A stretch of 63,394 bases of DNA, counting the filler, from Chrysochromulina tobinii (lineage: Eukaryota), in the NCBI GenBank assembly GCA_001275005.1. It is 9 parts of 9 records of this genome, joined end to end, with 100 filler letters (N's around TTAATTAATTAA, not from the genome) between each part and the next. Parts side by side here need not be neighbours in the genome. Positions count along the whole stretch, not along the records: positions 18,849 to 30,548 come from JWZX01000497.1; 8 more parts are not named here. One strand, 5' to 3'. Below the pieces are notes generated by a model. It was not told the DNA's origin. It worked only from the letters and a program-made list of their open reading frames with translations, and searched no databases. The position numbers and the translations under genes were made by a program. Shown here piece after piece: positions 5,777-48,405 of this stretch. The stretch's first letter is position 1. Every line of letters begins with the position of its first letter.

Positions 5777-8719
5777 CTAGGCCTGCATGCTAGTAGGGTG
5801 TGAGAGGCTCCTTTCCATCGGCGATACCAAACAGGCCGAAATCAAACTGTCGCTTGGGTAGCCAAAGCCTGGCTTGAGCGGCTTCTTGTTTCCCGCCAAA
5901 ATTTGGTCTTGGAGCAGCTGCTCGAGCCGGGGGACCACTTCGTGAAACTCGGGCCGCTCTGAAGTTTCCAGTGCCCAGCAATCCTTGAGAAGGCTCTGCA
6001 AGTCAGCGGGCCATCTGGGGTCGATCTTGGGATGGAACCCTTTTGCGACCGCCTTCTTGAAGAGCTCGGGCGAGGAGAACTCGAGGAAGGGCTTCCTATG
6101 GCTGCATATCTCCCACAGGACGGAGGCGAACGAGTACACCTCGGCCTTGTGATTGTAATTTTGCGAGTTGGCCACCTCGGGCGCCATGTAGCGCATCGAG
6201 CCGCACTCGCCTGTGAGCTTGCGCGGTATGTCGTCAAAGGCCTCGCCATGCCGCCAGAGCGAGGCGAGTCCAAAGTCGAAAAGCACGAGCTCGCCGGTGG
6301 CCAGGAAGCCAATGTTGTTGGGCTTCACGTCACGGTGCAGGATGCGGTAGCCCGGGAACGCGTCGTCGTGGCAATACTGAAGCGCGCGCGAGAGCTGCAG
6401 CCCACAGTTGAGGCACCGCATCAGTGGCCACGCCTTGACCTCGCGCCAGCGCACCCAGAATGGGATCGTGTCTGGGTCACGCGGGAGCTCTTTGTTGAGC
6501 ACCGTGGCGAGCAGCTCGATGATGACGAAGGGCTTCCCCTCGAGCTGGCCGAGCGCATACGCGTTGAGCACGTTCGGGTGGTCCATCAGGGTCATCAGCA
6601 TGATCTCACGCTTGATACCACGGAGTGCGCCAATCGAATTCTGCTTCGCCGGCTTGAGCATCTTGATCGCCACCTTCTCGCCGTCCAACGTGGTCCTGTG
6701 CGCCGTCGCGAACTCACCCTCTCCGAGATATTTCATCTCCCCGAGCGAGGTCCACTCCACAGCGCGCACTTGCTCGGGCAGCTTCCCCTTGACCATAAGC
6801 TGCACGCCACGCAGGTCGGACTCCTCGTCCCTTATGGATTTAAAGCCACCCTCCACGGCATTGCTCACGGGATTGCCATGGCCATCATCCACGTCTAAGA
6901 CTGAGTGCCATCCGCGCGTCGGGTCTGCGTTGCGCATAGGACGCTTTTTCATGCTTTGGCTCACAGCCCACGGCACGACGGCCTCGTCGTCTTCTAGGGT
7001 CTTTGACCCGTCCATCTTCGAGCCGTCCATGTCGCCCGATCCTGTCGGGCGGCCCACGACGAGATGGTCGAAGAGACCCGCGAGCGAGAAACCTCTGGTA
7101 TTAGACATGCTTCCCTTGCTGCGGCGGAGAGGGGTAGGGCTCCCGCCACTGCGAGGAGGTAATGACTCGACCACAATATGAGTAGCAGGCCGGCGTGGCT
7201 CATGTTTCAGCATGCCAGCGTCGTCCCAGGTCACAAACTCCGCTGGGGGGCGAACTCGGCCCGGGCTTGGGCTTCGGATCACTTGCACGGCAGCGTCGTC
7301 GAGCTCGGGACGATCGGGCTCGCCGGCGGACTCATATGTGCGAAATGCGTTCCCGGCTTTGACCGACATCTCGTGCCTCTTGTCGGGCGGCCGCTGCCTT
7401 TCCGGTAGCGGAGTAGATAGGGGGCTGCTATCGGCGGATTCCGGGACCCTGCGTACGCGAAGAGACGGGTCGGCGACAGCAAACACGGCGTCGGCGCTGT
7501 TTGATCGAGCGCGGACGCCCTTGCCCTTGAGCGCACTCCCGAGCACACTGTGCTCCTTGGACGAGTCCGAGTCTTCGTCCTCGTTCTCTTCGACCTCAGA
7601 GGATTTGACACGGCGCAGAAACGACCGCCCCCCCTCAGACTCGAAGCCATCTTTCACGCGTTTAGGGAGGTTGCCCTCTTTGGAGCCGTCGTCCAGAGTT
7701 GGCCCAAAGAGGATGACGCACGCGGTGGTGTCGTCGGTGAGTCCGCGCTTGGAGATGGCCGTCTTGACCACCTTGGCTGCCGCTGACTTGCCGTCCGAGT
7801 AATCACCCGAGATCAAGACGGCCGCCGCCTCCTGCGCACTCAGGTGATCCCACACGCCATCAGAGCACGCCACCAGCGCACCGCCCATCGGGGGAACCTT
7901 CCGGGTAACAAAGGAAGGCTCGGGCAACACGAAGGCCGCACAGTCGGCATCGCCGATGCCTCGGGTGACTGCCAGCCCTCCCGGGAAGGCTCGGATTGGC
8001 CCTCCGGGCTGGCCATTGGGGTCAATCGCCCGGCCGAGCGTCGCACCCTTTGCCACAACACGCAACTGCTCCTGCTGGTTTTCCTCGAGGCGATGGCTGA
8101 CGCCGAGCTCGATGTAGCCGTCATTCTCGACGAGCAGCGCCATCGAGTCGCCCACATTCCAACAAGACACTTCGCCGCGCGTCGCATTCACGCAGATTAC
8201 GGTGAGCGTCGAACCCGCCTTCCTCTCACCGGTGTCAAATTTCGAGCTGCACACCTCCTCGTGAACCTTCTTGAAGACGGCGTTACACGCCACGTTCAGC
8301 GCCGCGGCGGACCCGTCTGCCGCCGAGGCACAGATCTGTTGCAATACCCGCGAGCTGATGTAGGTAGACACATGGCTGCCGCCATGCCCATCGGCCACGA
8401 GGATGCACGTGATCGAGTCTCCACATATGATGTCCTGACGCGTCGCAAAGCAATCCTCGCCCTTGAGGGAGCGTTGAAAGCCGCCCACCATGAATTTCGT
8501 CTCTGATTTAGTGCCGAGTGAGGCCACTGCCACGCTATCGCGGCACTTGGGCTTAGTTGGGGTGCGAAATCCAAGGCTGGACGCAGCATGTAAATCGCTA
8601 CTTGTATCCCACGGCCACCTCCACCCCTTCATCTCAGATGAGGGCGATCCCATGCAGGGGAATCGTCCAGCTTCTCCTTGTGTTTTCTTTGGATAAAGGA
8701 GCGAAACTTTCCAGTCCAA
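5777..8719 (-). CDS. PP2C (PPM) phosphatase fused to a C-terminal TKL-like protein kinase
   Basis: PP2C motifs GED, ADGHGG, NVGDS, LAVTRGIGD, SDGVWD, DDTT; kinase motifs GEGEFA, VAIK, HRDVKPNN, DFG, YMAPE, all in one uninterrupted ORF. Start codon uncertain. Confidence 0.88.
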   Translation of the reverse strand: MDWKVSLLYPKKTQGEAGRFPCMGSPSSEMKGWRWPWDTSSDLHAASSLGFRTPTKPKCRDSVAVASLGTKSETKFMVGGFQRSLKGEDCFATRQDIICGDSITCILVADGHGGSHVSTYISSRVLQQICASAADGSAAALNVACNAVFKKVHEEVCSSKFDTGERKAGSTLTVICVNATRGEVSCWNVGDSMALLVENDGYIELGVSHRLEENQQEQLRVVAKGATLGRAIDPNGQPGGPIRAFPGGLAVTRGIGDADCAAFVLPEPSFVTRKVPPMGGALVACSDGVWDHLSAQEAAAVLISGDYSDGKSAAAKVVKTAISKRGLTDDTTACVILFGPTLDDGSKEGNLPKRVKDGFESEGGRSFLRRVKSSEVEENEDEDSDSSKEHSVLGSALKGKGVRARSNSADAVFAVADPSLRVRRVPESADSSPLSTPLPERQRPPDKRHEMSVKAGNAFRTYESAGEPDRPELDDAAVQVIRSPSPGRVRPPAEFVTWDDAGMLKHEPRRPATHIVVESLPPRSGGSPTPLRRSKGSMSNTRGFSLAGLFDHLVVGRPTGSGDMDGSKMDGSKTLEDDEAVVPWAVSQSMKKRPMRNADPTRGWHSVLDVDDGHGNPVSNAVEGGFKSIRDEESDLRGVQLMVKGKLPEQVRAVEWTSLGEMKYLGEGEFATAHRTTLDGEKVAIKMLKPAKQNSIGALRGIKREIMLMTLMDHPNVLNAYALGQLEGKPFVIIELLATVLNKELPRDPDTIPFWVRWREVKAWPLMRCLNCGLQLSRALQYCHDDAFPGYRILHRDVKPNNIGFLATGELVLFDFGLASLWRHGEAFDDIPRKLTGECGSMRYMAPEVANSQNYNHKAEVYSFASVLWEICSHRKPFLEFSSPELFKKAVAKGFHPKIDPRWPADLQSLLKDCWALETSERPEFHEVVPRLEQLLQDQILAGNKKPLKPGFGYPSDSLISACLVSPMERSLSHPTSMQA

Positions 8720-8884
8720 AAGAGGTTTGTACAGAGGGTTATTTTAGTCCATTGTCGCCATTTTTGGAAAAACTTGAAAGTGGACACACATCGGCCGTGG
8801 ATGGCTGCCCAGCGCTCAGTGAGTGAGAGCCCAGCGACTACATGTGCGGTGCGCCATGTCGGTGGCATGTGCCTTGTGCGGATG

Positions 8885-18848: not shown

Positions 18849-19076
18849 AAGCTCATACACATCATGGCTACACACCCCCGAAACGACGAAACGACAAACG
18901 GGGGTGGGGAAGCCGGCGGTAGCACTCTAAACATTTGGCACTCATTGATTGTATGTGGGGCAGCTTTCCAAAATGACCCTAATGATGAGTGCGAACGGAA
19001 GCGCGGCGGCGGCGGCCGACGGCAACGAACGGTTTTCCTTTCAAAACCGTTGCGGGGCGCTCAGTTGTACCTTGAA

Positions 19077-21239
19077 ATGGCAACCGTCGCTCTCGTTGCT
19101 CTCTCAGCCCTCGCGCTCGCAAGCGGAAACGTTCTCTCGGACGTCGCGCTCTCCAGTGCTAACGCTCTCTCGGGTGTTGCGCTCGCCAGCGAGAAGGTAC
19201 TCTCCGTGAACAAGCTCATGAGGCGCCGCCTCCAAGAGGTGCAGCCGTTCCAGTTCTACATCGATCGGCTCTACGAGAAGACTGATACGGCGCCCGCCTT
19301 GCCATCCATGAATTTCCCGGGCGGTAACAATAATGTGAGTCGGCCAGAGAGCGCCTACCCCGATCCTCTTTCCCGCCGAACCCAGCTCTTGTTCGACCAC
19401 CCCCATCACGAACACGAAGCTACCATCACGAGTTCTCTGCTCGGCCCTGTCCTTGTGCCGACGGCGCGCGTCCAACCCCCGTCCGCCCTCTCCTCCCTCC
19501 CTCCCACCGCTTGCTCGTAGGCTCTCGTCGATCTTTTCGAGTTCCAGCACCTCGTGCGCCTCCTCGCCCTCAACTGCGACGCGACGTCCTCGACACGCCA
19601 TGACGGGCGCTACTGCATCGCGGATGTGCCGGCCCAGTTCCAAGCCGCCAATGCCAACAACGTGACGAATGGTATCAGCATGACGGAGCTCACTAATTGG
19701 GTCGTCAGCCGTGAGAGCAGCGCAATCGCTGCGGACCAAGAGCTGGGAAACCAGCTCATCATGAGGCTCACGGGTGTGCCCGATCCGGAGGCGGCGGTTG
19801 GATTGCTGTCCGGAATCGGCCAGGTCTCCTCTTCGCAGTCAGCTGCAGAAGCGGTCGTCACCGTGTCCTTCACGCTCGGAGTCGCGCCTGACACGCTCTT
19901 CCCGGGCGAGAAAGACATGATCTTGATGAATTGCATCAAGCTGCTCTATCCCAACGAGACCCCGACCAGATATCAAGAGATCTTCACTGACACGGTCATG
20001 ACTATCTTGTCGGGCGACGCGAGCGGACGACGGCTGTCGGTGGCCACCTCGTCGACCGTGACCATCACCGCCTACTTCCCCAGCGATGCCGCGGCCTCTG
20101 CGGGCTCGGCCAACATGCAGTCCGTCATGAGTTCTCCTGCCGCCGCGACTACATATCTGGGCGTGCCCGTCACCTCGACCCCCACGGTGTCGATCAGCAA
20201 GCCGCCGGGCTCTGGCGCAATGGAGATCGTCCCGGCGGCGATCATCGCCGGCTTGATGGTCGTCCTCTTCTTCGTCGCTTGCTGCGTCGCCAAGTTCTGC
20301 TCCGAAAAGATGCGCAAGAAGTTCGAGACTGCACCGAAGGCGGTGGGCTGCTGCGGCAGCTGCCGCGCGGGCTGCTGCTCGGCCTTCGCGCTCAAGGGGT
20401 GGGCCTGGAACAACATGATCGCCATCGTCTTCCTGCTCGTCGCCGCAGGCGTGCTCTTTCACCGAATGCATGCTGTGACGATGGGGATCATCGGCATCAT
20501 CGACGCCGTCTTCGCCATGCAGACTGTGAGCATGGAAGAAGTCCGTGACGCTGTCGCAGGGTTCAGTAGCATCCTCGGCATGATCGATCCGATCCGTCCG
20601 CAACTCCCTCTGCTCACCATCGCGGTCATCGTGCCTGCCGCCGTCGCCGCCATCTTCCTCTTGATCTCTTCGTTGTGCTCGTGCCGCGCCTCTGGCACCA
20701 TGTGCTGCGCCAAGCTCTTCCTGATGCTCACGTATATCTTCCTGATCATCTGCATCGTCTTCTACATCATCTTCGCTGCGCTTGGGATCGCCATCTCGCT
20801 GCCCATAGTGAGATCGCAGCTCTCGATGGTCACCGGTATCTGCGGGACGACCTTGCCCATGCTCCAGCAGACTCTTCAGGACTCGAGCTTGGCACTCGAG
20901 CGCGCACGGGCCACGCCCGGCGTCGCCTCAGCAGATCTCGACACTGCCGCACAGCAGATGGCGAACGCTGCGGAGCCGGCAGCTATTATGAACGACCTGT
21001 GCGGCACACTGTACTCTCTCTTTGACCATTTGCCGGCCCTCTTCGCCCCGGCGCTCTCGTGCGTCTTCGCGGCCATCTACGGGCTCTACTCCTCGTGTGT
21101 CACGTGCTGCGTGGCCAAGTGCTGCTGCTCTCCGAAGGTGACAAGCAAGAAATACAACGGCGAGCTCGTCTGGCATGTGCATGGCAAGAGCAAGGTCACC
21201 AAGGTTATTCCGTCGGAAACGGAACTCGTAGCTCCCTGA
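19077..21239 (+). CDS. Signal-peptide, Cys-rich multi-pass membrane protein of unknown family (intron 19335-19520)
   Basis: MATVALVALSALALA signal; GTGAGT...TAG phase-0 intron; about five hydrophobic helices flanked by CC clusters; two RRL motifs. Confidence 0.75.
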
Positions 21240-21985
21240 ACTCGGTCTTGGATGCCCGATTCTCGCGCATCCGCCCGCTCGCCATGGTCGGCGTGAGCCA
21301 GCTTGAGGAAGAAGGCACCGGGACCGTCACCCCCATTCGTGGCCGCCGCCGCCGCCGCCGCCGCTGCCCCCGCCCTCCCCGCCCCCGCTTCCACCCCCAG
21401 CTCGACGACGACCTTTCCTCTACCGAGGAGGATGCTCTTAACAGATGTGTGTTGTTTGTGTGTCCGCCACGGTCCACACGCCAGTCAGGCGAGGTGGTTG
21501 CACGGGTTCAGAGGCTTCAGACCCGGGGTTGACCCGGGGTATGGCGACTCTGAATCGTGTCTGTGAGCGCGGTCCGCGGGACGGAGCATGAGAATGATCC
21601 GAGTGTGAACGTGTATGTGGTGTGTCTCTTCAGTCTTCTCTGTGCATCACACTTAAAGGGATGGTTATGAATATTATATATTATATATTAAACAGCCCCG
21701 TGAGCTGGCCAAGGTTCTTCACGAGTGCGGTGTGCGCGCGATTGAATGCCGATTGCGTTCGTACGTGTTGGAGTGATGAACGTGTACCGAGGTGCGTTGG
21801 TGGGTTGGGATGGTTGTGAGGTTCGTCTGTCCGTGTGTCCCGTGTGTGTCCCGGCTCCCCCCGGTGTCTTTTTACCGAGGATGAGGGGAAGTGGCACCGG
21901 AAACTTCTAACTTCGCCAAGAACATGCTTGCGCTTTGCGGTGAGGGTACAGACCCTCGGTTGCGGCGCCCGAGTCTGCCGAGGAG

Positions 21986-22375
21986 ATGGCAGCGCAACCC
22001 GGCGAGACTCCTGACGTGGAGGGTGAGCCGTGGGTGCTGCGGCTCGGAAATTTTCTAACCAAGAAAAAGGACACGCCAAAAGATGAGACGCCGTGGGCTG
22101 TGAAGCTCGGCACATACCTGGAGGAGCGCAGGCCAGCGCCGTGGACGATTATTGCCAACGAGAAGCCGAAAGACCCTCTTGCTCTGCGGCTCGGCACGTT
22201 CCTCAACGAGCTCGGCGGTACCCGCGATGGTGAGAGCTCGGAACCGTCGGAGCCGATCGTGCTGCGGGTGGGGAACTACCTCAATGGCGCAACCCGTAAG
22301 GGAGCTGATGGCGAGGACTCCCCGCTGATGGGCGGGCAATCGCCAACCGCGGCTGCGCCCCCTCAGGCCGTGTAA
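21986..22375 (+). CDS. Small protein with four PxxLRLGxxL repeats
   Basis: PWVLRLGNFL, PWAVKLGTYL, PLALRLGTFL and PIVLRVGNYL are conserved as protein while the codons differ. Confidence 0.65.
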   Translation: MAAQPGETPDVEGEPWVLRLGNFLTKKKDTPKDETPWAVKLGTYLEERRPAPWTIIANEKPKDPLALRLGTFLNELGGTRDGESSEPSEPIVLRVGNYLNGATRKGADGEDSPLMGGQSPTAAAPPQAV

Positions 22376-22721
22376 GCGGGCCGAGCTTACTAGCCCAATA
22401 CCGCCGGTGCAGACGCTCCAGGAGCGATAGCGATGCACCAGATGCACCAGATGCCACAAGGAAGCGACTCGCCGCATGCCGAGCCAAGGCAAGGCCGGCT
22501 GACCGATGGCGTCTGAGCAATAACAATCTGACGGGGAGACAGACAGACAGACAGACAGATAGACAGATGTAAGAGCCTGAGAAGCCCCCTGGTACTTTGC
22601 ACATAATTTGTAGTCTGAAGAGCTCTGAACTTTCCCACACGTCACCCCCCCCGGCCGTGGCGTGGGTGCCGGCGGGGGCATGTTCACGTGACTGTGCATT
22701 CCGTGAATATTCATTCCCTTT

Positions 22722-23558
22722 TCAGGCACGGGCCTCAAGCTGCACGATGCGACGGATCACCTCGGCGACGGCCGCGGCGAGCTGACGGTGGTCCTTCTCG
22801 TCGTCGCGTGCGTACGGCAGGTGCACAAAGTAGCTCGCGCCCAAAACGGTGCCATGAGACGAGGGCGAGAGCGAGGTCGCCTCCACCTCGGCCCACTCCC
22901 GTGCCTTGAGAGCTCTCCAATGTGTCTCGTTGCAAATGTACGAGTTGGAGACGCGGGCGGGCGCGAGCGAGAGCACAAAGCCACCCGGCAAGGCGGCCGA
23001 CGCGTTCGCGGCGAGCGCCGCGTAACGCCCCTGCATGGCAGAGCCCTGCACGAGCACTTGCGGCGCGCCCATGTCGATCGTGTGCCCTGGCGGGCTGTGC
23101 GCCAGCGCGTCCTGCCCCTGGCGCAAGTTGTACGCATCGTTCTCGACGAGGATGGTGTCGTGCCGATCGTAGACGCCGAGCCCCATGTGAATGACCAAGT
23201 CATACGAGAGCAAGTCAAGGCCGGCCGAGGCGCCCCACAGCACCGGCAGGGTCACGAACGTGAAATCAGCGTCGACAGTCGCACGCAGTGCCTGAGGCAG
23301 CGGGCCGTTGCGCGAAATCGGGGGCGATGCGCAGCACTCGCCGAGGATGAGTCTGCAGCTCGGGTTGTCTCGGCACCTCCAGATATTGCCGTCAAGCTCT
23401 CGCCAGTCGTGGAAGCCTGTGATAAGCACCCGCGGACGACGGGTCGCTGCCGACTCGCTTTCGGCTGCAGCACCTTTGTTGCAGCTAATAGCGGCCGCCA
23501 CCCCGCCGGCCACGGCGGCCACTAGAGGGCCACTCTGGCGGATGAGGAGGCGATGCAT
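22722..23558 (-). CDS. Pyroglutamyl-peptidase I-like (peptidase C15)
   Basis: VLITGF...NPS, TLPVLW, VIHMGL, VENDAYN (Glu), SYICNE (Cys), FVHLP (His). Confidence 0.8.
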   Translation of the reverse strand: MHRLLIRQSGPLVAAVAGGVAAAISCNKGAAAESESAATRRPRVLITGFHDWRELDGNIWRCRDNPSCRLILGECCASPPISRNGPLPQALRATVDADFTFVTLPVLWGASAGLDLLSYDLVIHMGLGVYDRHDTILVENDAYNLRQGQDALAHSPPGHTIDMGAPQVLVQGSAMQGRYAALAANASAALPGGFVLSLAPARVSNSYICNETHWRALKAREWAEVEATSLSPSSHGTVLGASYFVHLPYARDDEKDHRQLAAAVAEVIRRIVQLEARA

Positions 23559-24178
23559 GTCTTTCGTTGGGCTTTCTTGTTTTAACAGTGAAACCTAAAT
23601 CACGTTCTCGTTCACGTTCACGTTAATTTGCCATCTCGGCAAGACGCACAGCCACAGGTCCCGTGGAGACACAACGTGGGAGGCGCAGAGTGCGGCGCGC
23701 ACACACACAGAAACACAACGCCGCAGACAAGCACAAACACCGGATCGATCGATCAGAAGGGGGCGGGAGTGTCAAGGTGGTGAAAGAGGCCGCCCGGAGG
23801 GGGCGAAACTCACGTTCACGGACCTTGCCCGCGCGAATGTATAGACGTTGGGCCGCTGCGCTTGCGCCCGGGACCCTCACCATAATTTTGTCGCAGAGGC
23901 TCCCCTGGGTGGGGGCCAGTTGCGTCCTGTTCCCTTGGCCGCTTGTCGCCCCGACCACACGCCCTCCCTTGGGCATCCTGCGGCGCATCGTCCCCTGAAG
24001 TCGACCCGTCGTCCGATGCGTCAACAAATAGGTTGCGGCGTTGTCCGCCGGAGCGGGCGCGTCGCGGGGCCTCTTCCCCCCGTGCGGTCGGCCGAGCGTC
24101 GCGTGCCGCTTGTTCCCGGGCGTCCTTAAGCGCTTGTTTGCGGCGTTCAATCGTGGGGTCAAATCCCGCGTTGCGTAG

Positions 24179-25387
24179 CTAGACAAGTTTCCGTCGGTGC
24201 TTGCCCGCAATAGCGAGAAGTTTGTCCGCGATAGTGTGGAGCTTCTCCGCGAGGGCCGTGGTAAGGTGGATGAAGTCTGACCACTGGTCATACGCGAGGC
24301 ATCCCGCCTCATGTCCCCCCTGCCTGTCAGGTTCCGCAGCCGGCACTCCACGTGGGCGCGGCATCTTGTCGAGCACCTCGGGGCCTGCCATGATTGTCCA
24401 CAGCCGGAGAGCACGGAAGGCCCGCCGGACCAAGCATGCCCCACTCCACACCTCGCGCAGCCCCCGAGACGTAGTCCACACCGATCGGGGGGCAGGTCGA
24501 TCGAGGACTACGATGCGATCGCGGTAGCTGATGACCGTTGTGTGAACCGCGTTGGGTTTAACCCTTGGCCCTGATCGAGCCACGCAGGCGGCTTTGCGCC
24601 CTTCATTGAGTATGCCCACGATCCACTTGAGGAATCCTCGCCCGTAGGCGAGCGCGAGTGTCCTTGCTGCCTCTTTGGACTCAACGACAATTTGCGCCCT
24701 AGGAGAGTCAGGAAGCCCGAGCATGAATCGTAGTGCCGCGTGGCGCTCAAGCGGCCCGAGCTGCGCCGCGTTGCCTGATAGGGCTGCGAGAGCATATTGT
24801 GCTTGTCTCGTACCAAAGTCACTCAGACGTTGACTGAGCCATCCTGCAGCACGCGCTCGGTAATCAGCGGCCTCGCCGACGCAGCAAGTAGTTAATGCGT
24901 GCCATCGGGATTGAGGCGCTCGTGCCGGCAGCGGACGCCATATGCCCGCCACAATCACATCACGCGCGAGGAAGCATCCCGTGCACGGACACGGCGCATG
25001 CGTCTGACACCACCATTCCCAGCTGCCTTTCTGAGCGTGATAAGCGCGCTCGCGCTCGCGCTGCGGGGGACCAATCAGAACGCGTTCGCGTACGTCGTCC
25101 CCGAGCCTGTCAGCGAGTAGTCCACAGCGATCTGCTCGGGCATCCAGTATACAGTCGCGCGTAGCTTCGGTGAGGAGTCTCGCCCGCACTGGTGATCGAC
25201 AGAACATTGGCCACGTCTCCGCGGTCTCGAGAAGGGTGAAAGAGGATGCGCCCGCAAGCTTACGAGCCATGATCGCCGCACACAGATCGAAGACAGCCCT
25301 TCCAACCCCCCGTTTGACCCCCGCTATGCGGCAGAGTGCGTGTAAGGAGGGCATGAGGTCGATTGGTCGGATAGATGCACTAAGCAT
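24179..25387 (-). pseudogene. C-terminal retroelement segment with CPCxxC...H...C motif
   Basis: Follows RNase H after a frameshift near 25385; HAPCPCTGC...RWHALTTC. Confidence 0.55.
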
Positions 25388-26291
25388 GGATTGAGCCGTC
25401 GGCCGCCTCGTTGGGGGTGATGCCGTCGTGGCTGTGGACGTGGACGTAGAGCACGGCGCGGTGACGTTGCTCGAGGCGGGATATGTTGCCCAGCTCGTTG
25501 TCTCGGTAGCGTGCCGTTTTGGACGACACCGTGCGCCCGGGGAACGCGTGGCCTGCTTGCATTCCGCTAAGGCAGTCGGTCACAAAAACAGTGACCGTAC
25601 CGACGGTGGTGGCAAGTTGGTCGTGAAAGGCGGCAAGTTCGGCCTCGTACGAGTGGCGCTCAAAGGTGTCGGCGAAGACGTCGAGCTGCCCTCCCACGAC
25701 AGTACGCCCTAGGACCTCGGCAGCTACTGAGACGCAAGCCCGACTAACCACTTTGTTGCCCGAGTCAGGGTCGACTGCTTTGGACCCGTCCGTCGGGACA
25801 AAGTGGGTGACTGGGTACTCGGATTCGAGAACCAGAAGCTTGTCAAAGACGAATCGGCACTCCTTGGCCTTGAGCTCCTTGTGGGCGCGTGCGCAAATCT
25901 CGTGACATTCCCACCAGAAGCGCGCGGCTAAGGGGCAATCAGGGTGAAACGGGTTACCGCGAAGCCGGCCGGAGTCGTCGAAAGTGTAAGCAAGGCGGAC
26001 CCGACATAGCCACGCCTCCCCCCTTCCGATCCACACTTGATGGTAGCCCCCTTGGGTCCGTTGCCTCCACTCCCGTTCGTCCGGCTTCAGCTTGGAGTCG
26101 TACGAGAAAATGACTCGGCGCGTAGACCCGTCGAGGTCGAGTTGAGTTGGTCCCGCAGTGCCGTGAGGAAGGGGAGCAGGTGGTGCTGAGGTGCCGAGAA
26201 GGGCGGAGAAGGCCTCCTGCAGCTCTCCGGCGCGCGCTCCGTCGAGTTCCCGTCCCGACTTCTCTATCGCGGTGTGCCCATCTCTATGACT
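25380..26291 (-). pseudogene. RNase H domain of the retroelement
   Basis: D-E-D-D catalytic set: TDGS (25782-25793), YEAELAA, VTDCLS, NEAAD. Confidence 0.8.
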
Positions 26292-26964
26292 CAGAGCGCA
26301 ATCCTCATTGCTTACCCCAAAGAGGTTCGGTCTGCGGTCGGAAACCATCTCTTCAGGGCGGACGCTCTCAGTCATGATGACATCTACGCTCGAGCCAAGG
26401 TGCTCCTAAGTGCGATTGAGAATGGCGCGTCGTGTGAGTCTTGGCTTCGACAGCAGCCCCCAGGTCAGGTGCGCAACTCATCCTTACTCACGAACATCTG
26501 GATCTCGCCTTCTACTACCTTCAATTTGGCGGCGTTTGCGCGCGAGCAAGTGGCTCGAGCGAGGTGGCTCGCTGGCGCTCAGCCCCACCTCATCTCCTTC
26601 GTCGAGACCTTAAACGGCCTCATGCAGGAAGGGGATCGCGACGCCGAACTCACGGCCAAGTCGTACGTACTGCAAGACTACGAAGGTGCTTCGAGGCGGG
26701 CCAAGGTGGAATGGGCTCGACGCACGCAGGCGCAAGTCATCAACTTGCAGCACGACGGCGTGCGCATGCGCTTCCCCTTCGACTTGCACCTTGAGACGGC
26801 ACTTCTACGGATTTCGGACGCGTGCTCGGCTGCTCTTGGGTACAAGCAGGTAGTCTGCGTTAAACAATCACCTAAGGGCAACTCGCTGCTCGATCGCCTT
26901 CAACCTTCAATCCTACCTCCCGCCACCCCTCAGCGCCCCCCTACAGTGTTCACCCCTTCTGTGA
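26286..26964 (+). pseudogene. Inverted segment encoding the C-terminal half of a family-A/TV-Pol-like polymerase domain
   Basis: RAKVLLSAIENG (motif B-like), SYVLQDYE, INLQHDG (26745-26759, motif C-like). Confidence 0.65.
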
Positions 26965-27340
26965 CTCTTGACTGCCTGCTGAGCTGTCGGAAAACTGATG
27001 GCGTCATCCAAGTCGTGACTGACCTCCTGGAGAGCAGCGTCACGTACTAGGCGAGAACAAGTGAAAGGGTCGGGGCCGAGGGCGTACTCACGGCTGTATC
27101 GAACGAATCCGGCGGCGACGAGCCTCGCGCCGCGCTCAGAATGCACGTAGGATATGGGTAGACTGCGAAGGTGCGAGCTCGACGGGTGTTCCTTGCTAGC
27201 CGCGAGAAGCCCTCGCACTTCGGAAGCTACAGTGGTGCCGGGGTGACGGCCAGGCACTCCGGCATTTGGGGATAGTAGGAGAGCGCGGAGGGCGGTGGCG
27301 TGAATGACGCATTCGATGGTGGTGGTGACGGGCCCACGGC
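26962..27340 (-). pseudogene. N-terminal half of the family-A/TV-Pol-like domain
   Basis: SREY...SRLVRDAAL...HDLDDAISFPT (27003-27014, motif A-like); frameshifted from the RT ORF at about 27260-27360. Confidence 0.6.
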
Positions 27341-29503
27341 GGCGTTCAAGCCACGCGGACCAATCGTGAAGGCGGTTCTGGCGGTCGCGTAAATGGATCC
27401 ACGCTCCATTGCAGCGGACGGGGTGTCTGAGCTATCGCCGACGAGGATGGCTGTAATCGCTTTGGCGTAGAGGCAAGCGGACCAGAAGTTGTCGACCGCC
27501 GTGCAGGTTGATCCGCTGGGAAGGTTCTTGAGCACTGCAGGCGCAAGCTCCCCGTACTTTCGAAGGTGGTACTTCAACAGAGCCCGGTCTATCATCCTGT
27601 GAAAGGAAAGACCATGCTGGTCGTCCGTAAAGTTGATAAAGGCGCTATCGGGCAATAGCTGGATGGCTGCCCGCAGGGTATTGACGTCGACGGTCACCCG
27701 GAGGAGCGCTGCAAGCTTATGACCGCCGTCTCCACTACGCTTTCGCTGGGCAAGATCGGCGAGTGGCAATTGTCGGACGAGCCCATACTCTGCAGGGGCG
27801 TAAGGAGGGATGATCCCATCGGCAGCATCCGCCATTGCCCACCCCCGTCGCCCTGGCACAGGCGCTACATGGCACGCAATGATAGCCCCAAGGAGGACTG
27901 CGAGTTCACGCCGAGCCTCACTCGCCCCGAGCTCGACTGCCCGTGGGTGCGCTGAAAGGATGTCATCGACGCCTAAGAAATCCCCATGAGTCTCGTCGCA
28001 CAGGTTAGCGAGTTCAGCTATGCCGCCAGCGGCGAGTATGGGGCAGAAAGTGACGCCCTTGGCGCGTAGCCGCGAGTAGAGGGGCCCGTGCCAAAGTCCG
28101 ACCCAGTCCTCAGGGTATCCCGGCCAGCGCTCTGCGCGGAGGGGGGACCATTCCGCGAAGTGACAATCAACCAGCGGGAGATAACCAGCACCAAGCTGAC
28201 AAAGGATCCACATAGGGCGCTCGATGACGTTGTCCAGACGGAGGAATTCAGAGACGGGGCCAAGGAGGATGCCTTGAGGCCCGAAGGTAAGCTGGCGAAG
28301 GCCGTAGGTCCACAGAACTCGAGCGACGGCATGGTGGGCACGATCGGCGGCTGGTGTATGGACGGGCGATGCCAGTGCGTTGACAAGAGTCATGGCCGCT
28401 GCCGCCATCAAGGCCGGCCATACGTGGGCAGTGCCGTAGCCGGAGACGAAGGCAGCGGGGCCTGCGACGTTGACAAAGAAATGCGCCAGGTCGTCGTTGG
28501 CCGGCGCAGTAATCCCTCCCGGTTGGGCGTGGAGTTGGATGCGTGGCGATGAGTACGAGCGCCGCGGGCCCTTGACTCCCGCGCCTTGAAAACATTTTCG
28601 GCTCGCAGGTCCCAACCTTCCCTCGATATCTTCAAAAGATCCCCCGAAGCAGGTGCCGTAGAAGAAAGCATTCCCGTACACGCCCAGACCAGCACACCCG
28701 GTGGCTATTCTCCTGCTCGTGTGAGAAGTCGTAGCTTGAGCTCCACATGCCGAGATCTTTGTTTTGAGGGTGGCGAGGCCAATATTGTTGTGGTTTCCAT
28801 CCATGCGCGTCGCCATACCGCAGTACAGATAGTGTTCGCTGATGAGAAGGTTGGGGATGAGGCGAGGGGGGTCATTCGGCCGAAGCCCCGCAATGAAGAA
28901 GTCCTTTTGCGTTTCAGTGGGGACAAGGGTTCCGTTGCGTGCTCGCTTGTACTCGAGCGCCTGCACCACCGTCTTGTCCTTGCCCTTGATGTTGAGCTGA
29001 CAGTCAGTTATGCGGCTCCAGATGGACCAGAAAACCGTAACTCTCTGAAGGAAGTCAGCGTCCCCCGTAGCGTTTGCCGCGTCGTCCACGAAAACCAACA
29101 TGCCTAATTCTAGTCCAGCTCCGTCCGGTGCGAAGGCCGAGTAGCCGGAGACCTTAAGCTCAAGTGCCTGAGCGATAGTGTCCATCATGATTTTACACGC
29201 TTCGGGCGACCCTTGCGCACCCTGGAGGAAGCCGCGCAAGATTGGGAATGGGTCGGTCGCACCAAACGCCGTCTCATACCGCCCTTGCGCCACGCCGTGC
29301 TTCCAGTTATCCACGAGCCCTCGAAGAGCCCGTAGCGCAGCCTCAGGAACACCAATGTGACGCATTGCCATAGCGGCGGCCGTGCGGGAGAATGACATGA
29401 AGCACTTCGTGAGGTCGACATAAAGGACATAAAGAGGTTTGCGCCGTGCGAGGGCGTCGTCGATGCACAGATGTAGGGCGAATGCTTGCTCAGTGCATCC
29501 TCG
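27227..29503 (-). pseudogene. Reverse transcriptase (LINE-type) region
   Basis: Frame open from a stop at 29504-29506 through LYVDLTKCFMS, QGAQGSP, FVDD, LNIKGKDK and YLYCG. Confidence 0.85.
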
Positions 29504-29535
29504 TTAAGGCGTGGATCCGGCTGGCTCCAGCGCCA

Positions 29536-30548
29536 TCCGGGTTAACCGGATAGTGGCTATTTTGCCATCTGGTAGATACAGATAGCTGGTGTGGGTGGTC
29601 CAGGTAGATCCAGATACCGTAAAAAAGTCTTCGGATATTTCGGATAGTCAGATATCCGGATACCGGTACAGTACTGTACCGGTACACGTGCGCACCGCTT
29701 CACCGCGCGATGCTGGCAGGCTTTCGCGCTTCGCTGCCGTCGGCTGTGCTCGCCGCCACGCTTCTTCGCGACGCGGGCGCTGCCAGTGCTCGCCCGCAAC
29801 CAGCTTCCAGCATTGAGCGTCGCGTCTCCACTGGTGGTCAGCACTACTAATCGGGAGCCAGCCAACTATGTGTTGCGCTTGCTCGCTGCTGGCTCGCTGC
29901 TTGCTGCACTTGTCCAGCCGGAGGCGGCGGAGTGTGGGGGCACAAAGCGCAAAAAGGGCACTGTGGTGGAGGAGTTTTACGAAGTCGATTGCATTAAGGC
30001 GCGCCGCATTGTCAAAGGAGGTCGAGCGCATCGACCGCTTCAAGGAGCTCCTCGCCAAGCGCGCCAAGGAGACCCCCGAGGACTCAGAGGCTTTCTGACT
30101 ACACCCGTACAAGGACCAGCTGCTCGAAAGCGCCAGGGCACTAGCGCGCGAGCAAATCCTCGACTGGCAGCTCCACGGGCCGGACGAGCACCTGGAAGTC
30201 TGAGGTCATTTTGGAGCCCAGTGAGATCCTGGATGCCAGAAGTGGACCGATGGAAGTAGCCGACGATGCCCTTGCAGCGCGAGAAGGTGTCCACGATGAC
30301 GGCCGCGCCAGTGTAGTTCTTGACAGAGAGCTCAATTGTGTGGTCGGCGCAGAATCCGCCATCGAAGCCCACCCAGCCCGGTTAGCGCCCGGCCTCGTCG
30401 CTGCGGGCGTTGAGCGTATGTTCTCGAAGGCGGGCAAGCTCCATGGCGCAGACAAGGCTCCCCAAGAGGATGGGACCCTCGAGCACTGCCTCTTTGCCTC
30501 CGCCAACACCGAGTAGGGATGAGAGAGCACGCACGAGCGGAGCAAGAG
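29536..30548 (+). mobile_element. Degenerate hAT-like DNA transposon remnant
   Basis: AGVERMFSKAG...LEHCLF resembles the hAT dimerisation motif; fragmented frames; repetitive CGGATA/TATCCG subterminal region abutting the truncated RT. Confidence 0.55.
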
Positions 30549-32567: not shown

Positions 32568-32622
32568 ACTCAAGTCAAGTCAAGACAAGTCAAGTCAAGT
32601 CAAGTCACGTCAAGTCAAGTCA
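32568..32622. repeat. (CAAGT)n microsatellite
   Basis: Read directly from the sequence. Confidence 0.9.
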
Positions 32623-32919
32623 TTGTGAATGTGGGCTCCCACGCCGAGCGTGGCGCCGGGCCGACTTGCCTGTGGGGAAAAACGGGGAGGAGTGCAAGTT
32701 GAGAAGAGCGTGTTGAAGCCCGAGAGGAGTACGAGAGGAGGTAGTCCATAAACTCCACGTCAGTCCGCTTCACCTGGTTGTACATGACCTTCGTCGTGAA
32801 TGTGAGCTGTCGCTCCTCGCGTGGTGCAAATGGCATTCCTCCATAGTAGTTCTTGAGCCAGACCAAAGGCTTCGTTGCCTTATCCTTCTGTATCGCGCCT
32901 GCCTGCTCGTGTGGGGTGA

Positions 32920-33710
32920 CGTGGGGTTTCCTATCCTTTTTGGGGGGGGGGTTCCTATCGGATACGTATCCTGATGTATTTCGATGTATCCTGCATGTAT
33001 CTTGCATGTATTTCGATGTGTCCTATCAAGATACATCAAGATACATCAAGATACATCAAGATACATTTGTATAGGATGTATCTCGCATGTATCTCGCATG
33101 TATCCCGCATGTATCCCGCATGTATCCCTCAGATACGTACCTCTCTGCATACATTTGAGATACATGTCTCTCATGATGTATCCCTGATGTATCCCGCATG
33201 TATCCTCTATGTATCCTCTATGTATCCTGGAGTACCACTGCAGATGCATGTATCCCGCATGTATCCCGCATAAATGCTTGCATGTATCCCACATATATTC
33301 GTCATGACCGTCCAAGATACATGTATCGTGATTTTGTATCTCGGTGTATCCTGATGTATCGTGATGAAGAGTCCAAGATACACGTATCCTGATGTATCCT
33401 GACATGTATCCAGTGTGCCACCAAGGAAGCGCCCAAGATACATGTATCTTGATGTATTTGATGTGTATCACCAAAATGTATCTTGGACTCGTTTGGGATA
33501 CGTGTAAAATACATGCATAATGTGAAGGATACATGTATTCTCTTGGAATGTAACAGAGCATGTAAAATACATTTGAGATACATCAGGATACATTCGGGAT
33601 ACATGTATCCTTCAGGATACATGCAGGATACATGCAGGATACATGCAGGATACATAAGGATACGTATTGTATAGGAAACCACCCCCAATTTGTATAGGAA
33701 ACCCCCCCTG
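32920..33710. mobile_element. MITE-like element filled with GATACA/TGTATC motifs
   Basis: Imperfect terminal inverted repeats GGGGTTTCCTAT...GATACGTATCCT and AGGATACGTAT...ATAGGAAACCCC; related copy at ~48180-48400. Confidence 0.65.
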
Positions 33711-33962
33711 ACCCGGGCGCGACCGGCTCCCCATAAGGGGTCGGTCACGACGAGGACCACCACGTCACCGTCGACCTACGGCGCGACGCCCCCCCATCCG
33801 GGGGCGGGCCGTGAAACGCATCGAAAAATCCTCCCCAGGGTGGATGGTTTTTCCACAACCTCNNNNNNNNNNNNNNNNNNNNNNNNNNNNNNNNNNNNNN
33901 NNNNNNTTAATTAATTAANNNNNNNNNNNNNNNNNNNNNNNNNNNNNNNNNNNNNNNNNNNN

Positions 33963-48179: not shown

Positions 48180-48405
48180 GGGAGACGTGGGGTTTGTTAT
48201 CGAATTTGGGTGGGTTTGTTACGTATCAGGATACGTATCCTATGAATCTTGCATGTAATTGCATGTATCTTGACGTGTTCCGTTGCCTATACATAACTAA
48301 CATACTCATACAAGCATATCATACATCATCAGATAACAACCGAGATACTAGTCAGATACTAGAGAAGATACATCGAGATACATCAAGATACATTTGTATC
48401 TGTCA
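48180..48405. repeat. Diverged relative of the GATACA MITE-like element
   Basis: GACGTGGGGTTTG...GGATACGTATCCT...CAAGATACATTTGTAT matches 32918-33072. Confidence 0.65.

Follow-up and report, generated by a model that had tools for sequence, protein, structure and literature searches.

A 723-bp segment inside a dead non-LTR retrotransposon copy has been inverted with blunt ends and is fixed in that orientation. We consider it probable (roughly 0.65) that the inversion arose after the element had inserted, through paired cuts and end joining. The copy lies in a stretch of 63,394 nucleotides from Chrysochromulina tobinii, here called the window, for which a first-pass annotation had described an internal inversion of ~670 bp.

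The window consists of contigs joined by N spacers, and the finding is on the contig at positions 18849–30548. Among named homologues, gene models of Chrysochromulina parva are the nearest, one of them with 95% identity across 185 aa of the reverse transcriptase (RT), and the element is likely to derive from a Chrysochromulina-type haptophyte. No relatives of the studied sequence were found among the viral contigs searched, and there was no Rfam match. The other contigs of the window carry eukaryotic genes. At 5777–8743 (minus strand), PP2C phosphatase and protein kinase domains share one reading frame, and a low-GC array of 10–11-nt repeats (ATGTATCC-like) occupies 32600–33800, with a related repeat near 48355.

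The retrotransposon copy carrying the inversion

Intact relatives of the copy encode a single ORF of 4,095 aa (L004) or 4,392 aa (P0176), which combines an APE endonuclease, an RT, a J-domain-like unit, a family-A polymerase, an RNase H-like domain and a C1-like region in one protein. In the intact L004, the endonuclease matches Exo_endo_phos above the cut-off (E = 1e-6) upstream of the RT, whereas the RT matches Pfam RVT_1 (E = 2.1e-6) at 28 bits, just below the curated cut-off of 29.6, with the FVDD motif present. Relatives end in a conserved 3′ UTR and a microsatellite tail. Tails of (AACGTG)n or (AACG)n occur in the window and in 8 of the 9 loci shown (L004 ends before the tail), and no LTRs were found. 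The element is laid out in the window as follows.

23600..23818, minus strand: conserved 3′ UTR, ending in the (AACGTG)n microsatellite tail
24095..24100, minus strand: junction of deletion 2, in frame, ~714 nt relative to P0176 and ~717 nt relative to L004; the C1-like Cys-rich region is lost
24098..25397, minus strand: C-terminal region, with a 1-nt frameshift near 25396 and an in-frame stop at 24179–24181 (Trp in P0001)
25398..26246, minus strand: downstream arm with the RNase H-like domain (TDGS, SYEAEL, TDCLS, HVHSH, NEAAD); weak Pfam RNase_H match, E = 0.019
26247..26969, plus strand: the inverted 723-bp segment, with 241 codons and no stop; it encodes fingers and palm in the predicted family-A (TV-Pol-like) polymerase
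26283..26297, plus strand: left site of the first-pass annotation, present and within the inverted segment, no breakpoint
26394–26408, 26661–26684 and 26748–26759, plus strand: polymerase motifs in the segment, namely the motif B lysine region, SYVLQDYE and motif C QHDG
26970..27416, minus strand: upstream polymerase arm, with thumb, conserved Arg (SREY, 27095–27084) and motif A DLDD (27014–27003)
27416..27422, minus strand: junction of deletion 1, ~733 nt relative to P0176, frameshifting; the J-domain-like unit is lost
27422..29503, minus strand: RT and downstream region (VDLTKCF, LQGAQGSP, FVDD), 87% identical to P0176
29504..30548, no strand assigned: insertion of 1,264 bp that interrupts the element and runs off the contig; the 5′ continuation of the element is seen in L005

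Besides the inversion, the damage to the window copy consists of two deletions, a frameshift, a single stop and the insertion of 1,264 bp, which is flanked by a target-site duplication (TSD). The copy is young, since 22 of 995 invariant columns are changed, a number similar to that in intact relatives. L005, a longer assembly of the same copy, extends 5′ into the APE endonuclease region and shows the TSD-flanked insertion interrupting the element (L005 4931–6194), which refutes a 5′ truncation at 29503; the 5′ end of the element lies beyond both the window and L005. The insertion has 15-bp terminal inverted repeats starting with TTAAGGC and a 6-bp target duplication, CGAGGA, and looks non-autonomous. 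A 5′-short copy of the element is represented by L009.

At the other end, the last ~80 nt of the 3′ UTR (23609–23689) have several hundred times the local summed contig depth, which suggests many short copies, or a SINE with the same tail. In several copies the end of the 3′ tail is followed, within at most a few tens of bases, by a long ORF (L007–L011; window 23594–23625), hinting at gene-proximal insertion. The adjoining ORFs include those of L010 and L007 (TIG-domain and leishmanolysin-like) and that at 22722–23594 (minus strand) in the window. The latter has no Pfam match at E 0.01; its motifs resemble those of pyroglutamyl peptidase I.

All 13 homologues of the plus-strand ORF match the plus strand of the window, whereas the flanks match the minus strand. 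Five homologues match the upstream arm (minus), the segment (plus) and the downstream arm (minus) in order, as separate hits, and the same change of strand is seen against six DNA loci (L001–L004, L007, L013). Because homologues and DNA loci agree in this, and homologues run through arm, segment and arm, the plus-strand ORF is not an independent gene. The internal inversion itself, as first annotated, therefore stands.

Its ends were placed by homologue alignment at 26247–26969 (723 bp, blunt), with 26246–26970 scoring equally well. Among 977 in-frame breakpoint pairs ranked with an HMM built from nine homologues, 26246/26970 came first (588.9 bits) and 26247/26969 second (588.7 bits). The latter pair fits both junctions of the homologues without gaps, these being QQA[VLIT]-FP at one and, mostly, T-P-x-V-x-x-x-D at the other. 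A contig from a diverged sister family, present in two DNA runs, matches 26970–27026 and departs exactly at 26970; its next six letters are those at 26247. The inverted repeat at 26247/26969 is 0 nt long, and the longest inverted word shared by the two breakpoint zones is 5 nt.

These ends bear on the mechanism first suggested, in which a template switch at microhomologous GA(C/G)TCA cores, within a quasi-palindrome regenerated by flipping, or else a reversible switch, had turned the segment. The quoted sites, TCTATGACTCAGAGC at 26283 and TCTGTGACTCTTGAC at 26958, are both in the window, and flipping 26290–26965 does join the sequence into one 683-aa frame. As evidence, this restoration of the frame is weak, because 8,887 of the 30,000 breakpoint pairs tested (about 30%) give the same 683-aa ORF; inverted identity of at least 5/7 at the cut was found for 41 of 2,666 in-frame pairs. 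The annotated pair, at 541.4 bits, ranked 692nd of the 977 and puts about 14 conserved residues out of place relative to the homologues; the true left end lies about 43 nt further left, and the size is 723–725 bp. Since the cores are not the ends of the inversion, the microhomology mechanism is unsupported, and the quasi-palindrome is coincidental. The true ends have no inverted repeat. A switch is further opposed by the finding of one orientation throughout and by the copy being broken elsewhere too. We regard this whole set of explanations as very improbable. The same low standing applies to an artefact of assembly or library, such as the chimera raised in the first-pass annotation. Eight of 21 listed sequencing runs (four DNA, four RNA) were compared as contigs. 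In all four DNA runs, both junctions are spanned by one unbranched unitig of 5,722 nt that shows 0 differences; its depth equals that of the flank in the two runs for which flank depth was compared. RNA contigs bridge the left junction in 4/4 runs and the right in 3/4. The DNA runs are possibly the source of the window itself and RNA libraries can contain DNA; against this, two other assemblies agree with the arrangement in the window, and there is no end repeat on which an assembler could flip. No strand-change joint, as expected of a second orientation, was found in the eight runs, which as contigs drop rare variants, so that rare forms could be missed. Because the unitig spans both junctions and no such joint was seen, the inversion is real and fixed, and neither an assembly artefact nor a switch.

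A predicted family-A polymerase in several retroelement types

The inversion cuts just after motif A, which remains outside the flipped piece, and parts it from motifs B and C inside. The polymerase domain of the window copy is thus inactivated, in line with the original annotation of a broken polymerase. Sequence searches for a polymerase gave no match in Pfam or in the PDB sequence profile. AlphaFold models of the L004 domain (pLDDT 87.9 and 94.6) contain the parts of a family-A fold (thumb, hairpin, palm, fingers), and the rows returned by Foldseek against the PDB were family-A polymerases, with VIA giving Z 12.0 and an r.m.s.d. of 4.1 over 277 aligned residues against Pol theta. The best viral structural matches were an unnamed 776-aa protein (E = 3.5e-9) and a Zamilon replication protein (E = 1.1e-10), which we take to be TV-Pol–helicase fusions. 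Catalytic D205, D206 and D387 and hairpin R177 are invariant in 28/28 rows; in the RxxxK of the fingers, K is present in 28/28 and R in 17/28, with Tyr in the window subfamily. Differences between L002 and L004 at the three codon positions (89/58/187) show a third-position excess. The broken domain is accordingly modelled as a predicted family-A (TV-Pol-like) DNA polymerase, which would make the second DNA strand of the element. The ~95 residues ahead of it match J domains with middling scores (Z 6.3–8.0), on which many rows agree.

The polymerase profile matched 609 representatives at E ≤ 0.001, the best 150 of which were listed. In the window family the module sits between RT and RNase H. 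P0284 and at least 12 of the 35 proteins scanned have it downstream of RNase H, and the RT relatives P0219, P0221 and P0225 lack it; P0219 has a chromodomain in place of its relatives' polymerase. P0064 combines an endonuclease-like start (by eye) with RNase H and the polymerase. In P0027, P0030, P0031, P0167 and P0061, the module occurs together with Penelope-type RT motifs; an N-terminal GIY-YIG-like motif is followed by a J-like unit and the polymerase module ahead of the RT core. The motifs of this Penelope-like set were identified by eye or regular expression; Atlas feature hits were 0.92–0.97, several in clusters with HTH_animal or RVT_1, and Pfam and PDB profile searches of the set were negative. 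Taken together, the sequences place the same polymerase module in several unrelated retroelement types, with the Penelope-like members putative. Trees were quick and weakly supported, and no donor or order of events was drawn from them. The literature searched, which included few subscription papers and did not include Repbase, contained no retroelement with a family-A polymerase; the novelty is provisional.

Internal lesions of similar length

Taken by itself, a single inversion in a dead transposon is ordinary. Within the element family, 12 of 15 sized internal lesions measure 714–739 bp (median 725), and the other three 1,086, ~1,605 (a weak call) and ~3,369 bp. Sizes simulated log-uniformly over each of two ranges were equally clustered in 0 of 1,000,000 cases. 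Several sizes were read from alignments with proteins of other subfamilies, to an accuracy of about ±10 nt. The two deletions of the window copy (~733 and ~714) were sized against a different subfamily. L005 carries two further inversions of ~724 and ~725 bp, 59 nt apart. In other subfamilies, L007 has deletions of 726 and 727, L008 one of 728 and P0259 one of 739, and the inversions in P0005/P0179 and P0010 fall at ~718–731 bp, with estimates of about 725 and 721. The count left out five gaps of 216–909 nt in the C. parva gene models P0004 and P0007, which are possible called introns. A 728-nt signal in P0181 was rejected as non-significant, and P0253, tried as a sized lesion, turned out to be a 1-nt frameshift. 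Copies free of such lesions include L002, L003/L004, P0176, P0180, P0192 and P0194.

One insertion exists as several alleles. L001 and L002 are distinguished by a blunt inversion of exactly 1,086 bp, with no loss or duplication and 2 mismatches elsewhere, and P0233, a third allele, has an exact 725-bp deletion. Because a single insertion thus has intact, 725-deleted and 1,086-inverted alleles, the lesions postdate insertion. The inversions in the window, L005 and L001 have no inverted repeat at their best-scoring ends, and no shared motif was seen by eye at the cuts. Three relatives break at position 2432 of L008, by the 728-bp deletion (L008), the 1-nt frameshift (P0253) and a junction to upstream antisense sequence (P0250). 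The survey of lesions covered element copies and barely touched host flanks. In the literature searched, with few subscription papers, we found no fixed-length lesion process, so its novelty is provisional.

Paired blunt cuts followed by end joining leave joints without loss or homology. We propose that two blunt double-strand cuts ~725 bp apart would be made in an already inserted element and that homology-free end joining would follow, giving a deletion where the piece is lost and an inversion where it is re-ligated backwards. The sharp length of ~725 bp, together with blunt and homology-free joints, implies a physical ruler. This may be chromatin, in the form of four nucleosomes of ~181 bp, a guess to which we give a little less than an even chance. 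Arithmetically, 724 = 4 × 181 and 1,086 = 6 × 181, and nucleosome-periodic linker methylation is noted for Emiliania in a review (PMC9246332). Set against such a ruler, only 1,086 of the three outlying sizes fits a 181-bp unit, and the lesions of a single copy keep no common phase, the two L005 inversions being separated by 59 nt. CG periodicity of ~181 bp was absent from 150 kb of window and loci, and there was no excess of CG at 12 breakpoints (5.6 versus 4.9 ± 1.9).

The main rival to this proposal is a dedicated nuclease or recombinase, belonging to a host defence against transposons or to another mobile element, which would measure ~725 bp itself rather than by chromatin. The very tight sizes where references are exact (723–728), the accumulation of as many as five lesions by a single young copy, the break shared by three relatives in L008 and the lack of both CG periodicity and a motif common to the cuts would all suit such an enzyme. 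It comes without a candidate enzyme, however, the size of 1,086 (1.5 × 724) suggests a smaller unit, and the apparent targeting may be survivorship, host-gene lesions being purged by selection; we therefore rate it unlikely. Lower still, and quite improbable, is template switching during retrotransposition by the RT or the second polymerase, similar to L1 twin priming with switching. L1 insertions do show internal inversions and deletions in the sections available of the published accounts (PMC8219666; bioRxiv 10.1101/2024.08.27.596794), and the window copy is young yet has several lesions. However, the alleles L001, L002 and P0233, with identical flanks, place lesions after insertion, both flanks are in sense with gapless junctions, and the short deletions or duplications often reported at twin-priming junctions, as far as those sections go, are absent here. 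Paired cutting and end joining after insertion remains our preferred explanation.

A wider reading, held more tentatively than the chromatin ruler, is that haptophytes carry out a previously undescribed, blunt ~725-bp editing of retrotransposons, dropping or flipping pieces and inactivating copies in cultured populations. The targets would be a widespread, unrecognised class of retroelements with their own virophage-type polymerase for the second strand, a module exchanged between LINE-like and Penelope-like elements. If true, the fixed-length lesion process would add a new means by which genomes inactivate transposons.

Comparison with known systems

Dual-guide Cas9, Spo11 double cuts and nucleosome-ladder circular DNA all involve paired blunt cuts and end joining, and, like the lesions described here, yield precise, homology-free deletions or inversions of the intervening piece. 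The present lesions differ in that they come with no known guide, enzyme or hotspot. Serine and tyrosine recombinase switches reverse a defined DNA segment; in contrast, the inversion in the window lacks inverted repeats, occurs in one orientation only and has no alternative functional state. L1 twin priming, with or without switching, resembles our case in that internal inversions and deletions inactivate copies. As described in the portions of the L1 literature available, it occurs at insertion, with variable length and ragged junctions, whereas the lesions here are post-insertion, blunt and ~725 bp long.

The element itself is similar to APE-type LINEs with RNase H in its endonuclease, FVDD RT, RNase H-like domain, microsatellite 3′ tail, absence of LTRs and 5′-short copy, but differs from them in having a single ORF to which a J-domain-like unit and a family-A polymerase are added. 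In the available part of its description, TV-Pol has a minimal family-A core of a hairpin Arg, two palm Asp and a fingers Lys (PMC2579912). The same core residues are present here, the nearest structures are virophage replication proteins, and the module would link virophage replication genes with eukaryotic retroelements. TV-Pol was reported to occur alone or with a D5 helicase, resolvases or integrases, and in that part of the account never fused to a nuclease (Iyer, Abhiman, Aravind 2008; PMC2579912). Here, unlike TV-Pol as described, the predicted polymerase forms one fusion protein with RT, APE and RNase H, and does so in eukaryotic retroelements. Second-strand completion in non-LTR retrotransposons is described as not understood in the accessible text of a further source (PMC13486585), and an RT and a conserved, predicted DNA-dependent polymerase in one element would offer a natural system for that question.
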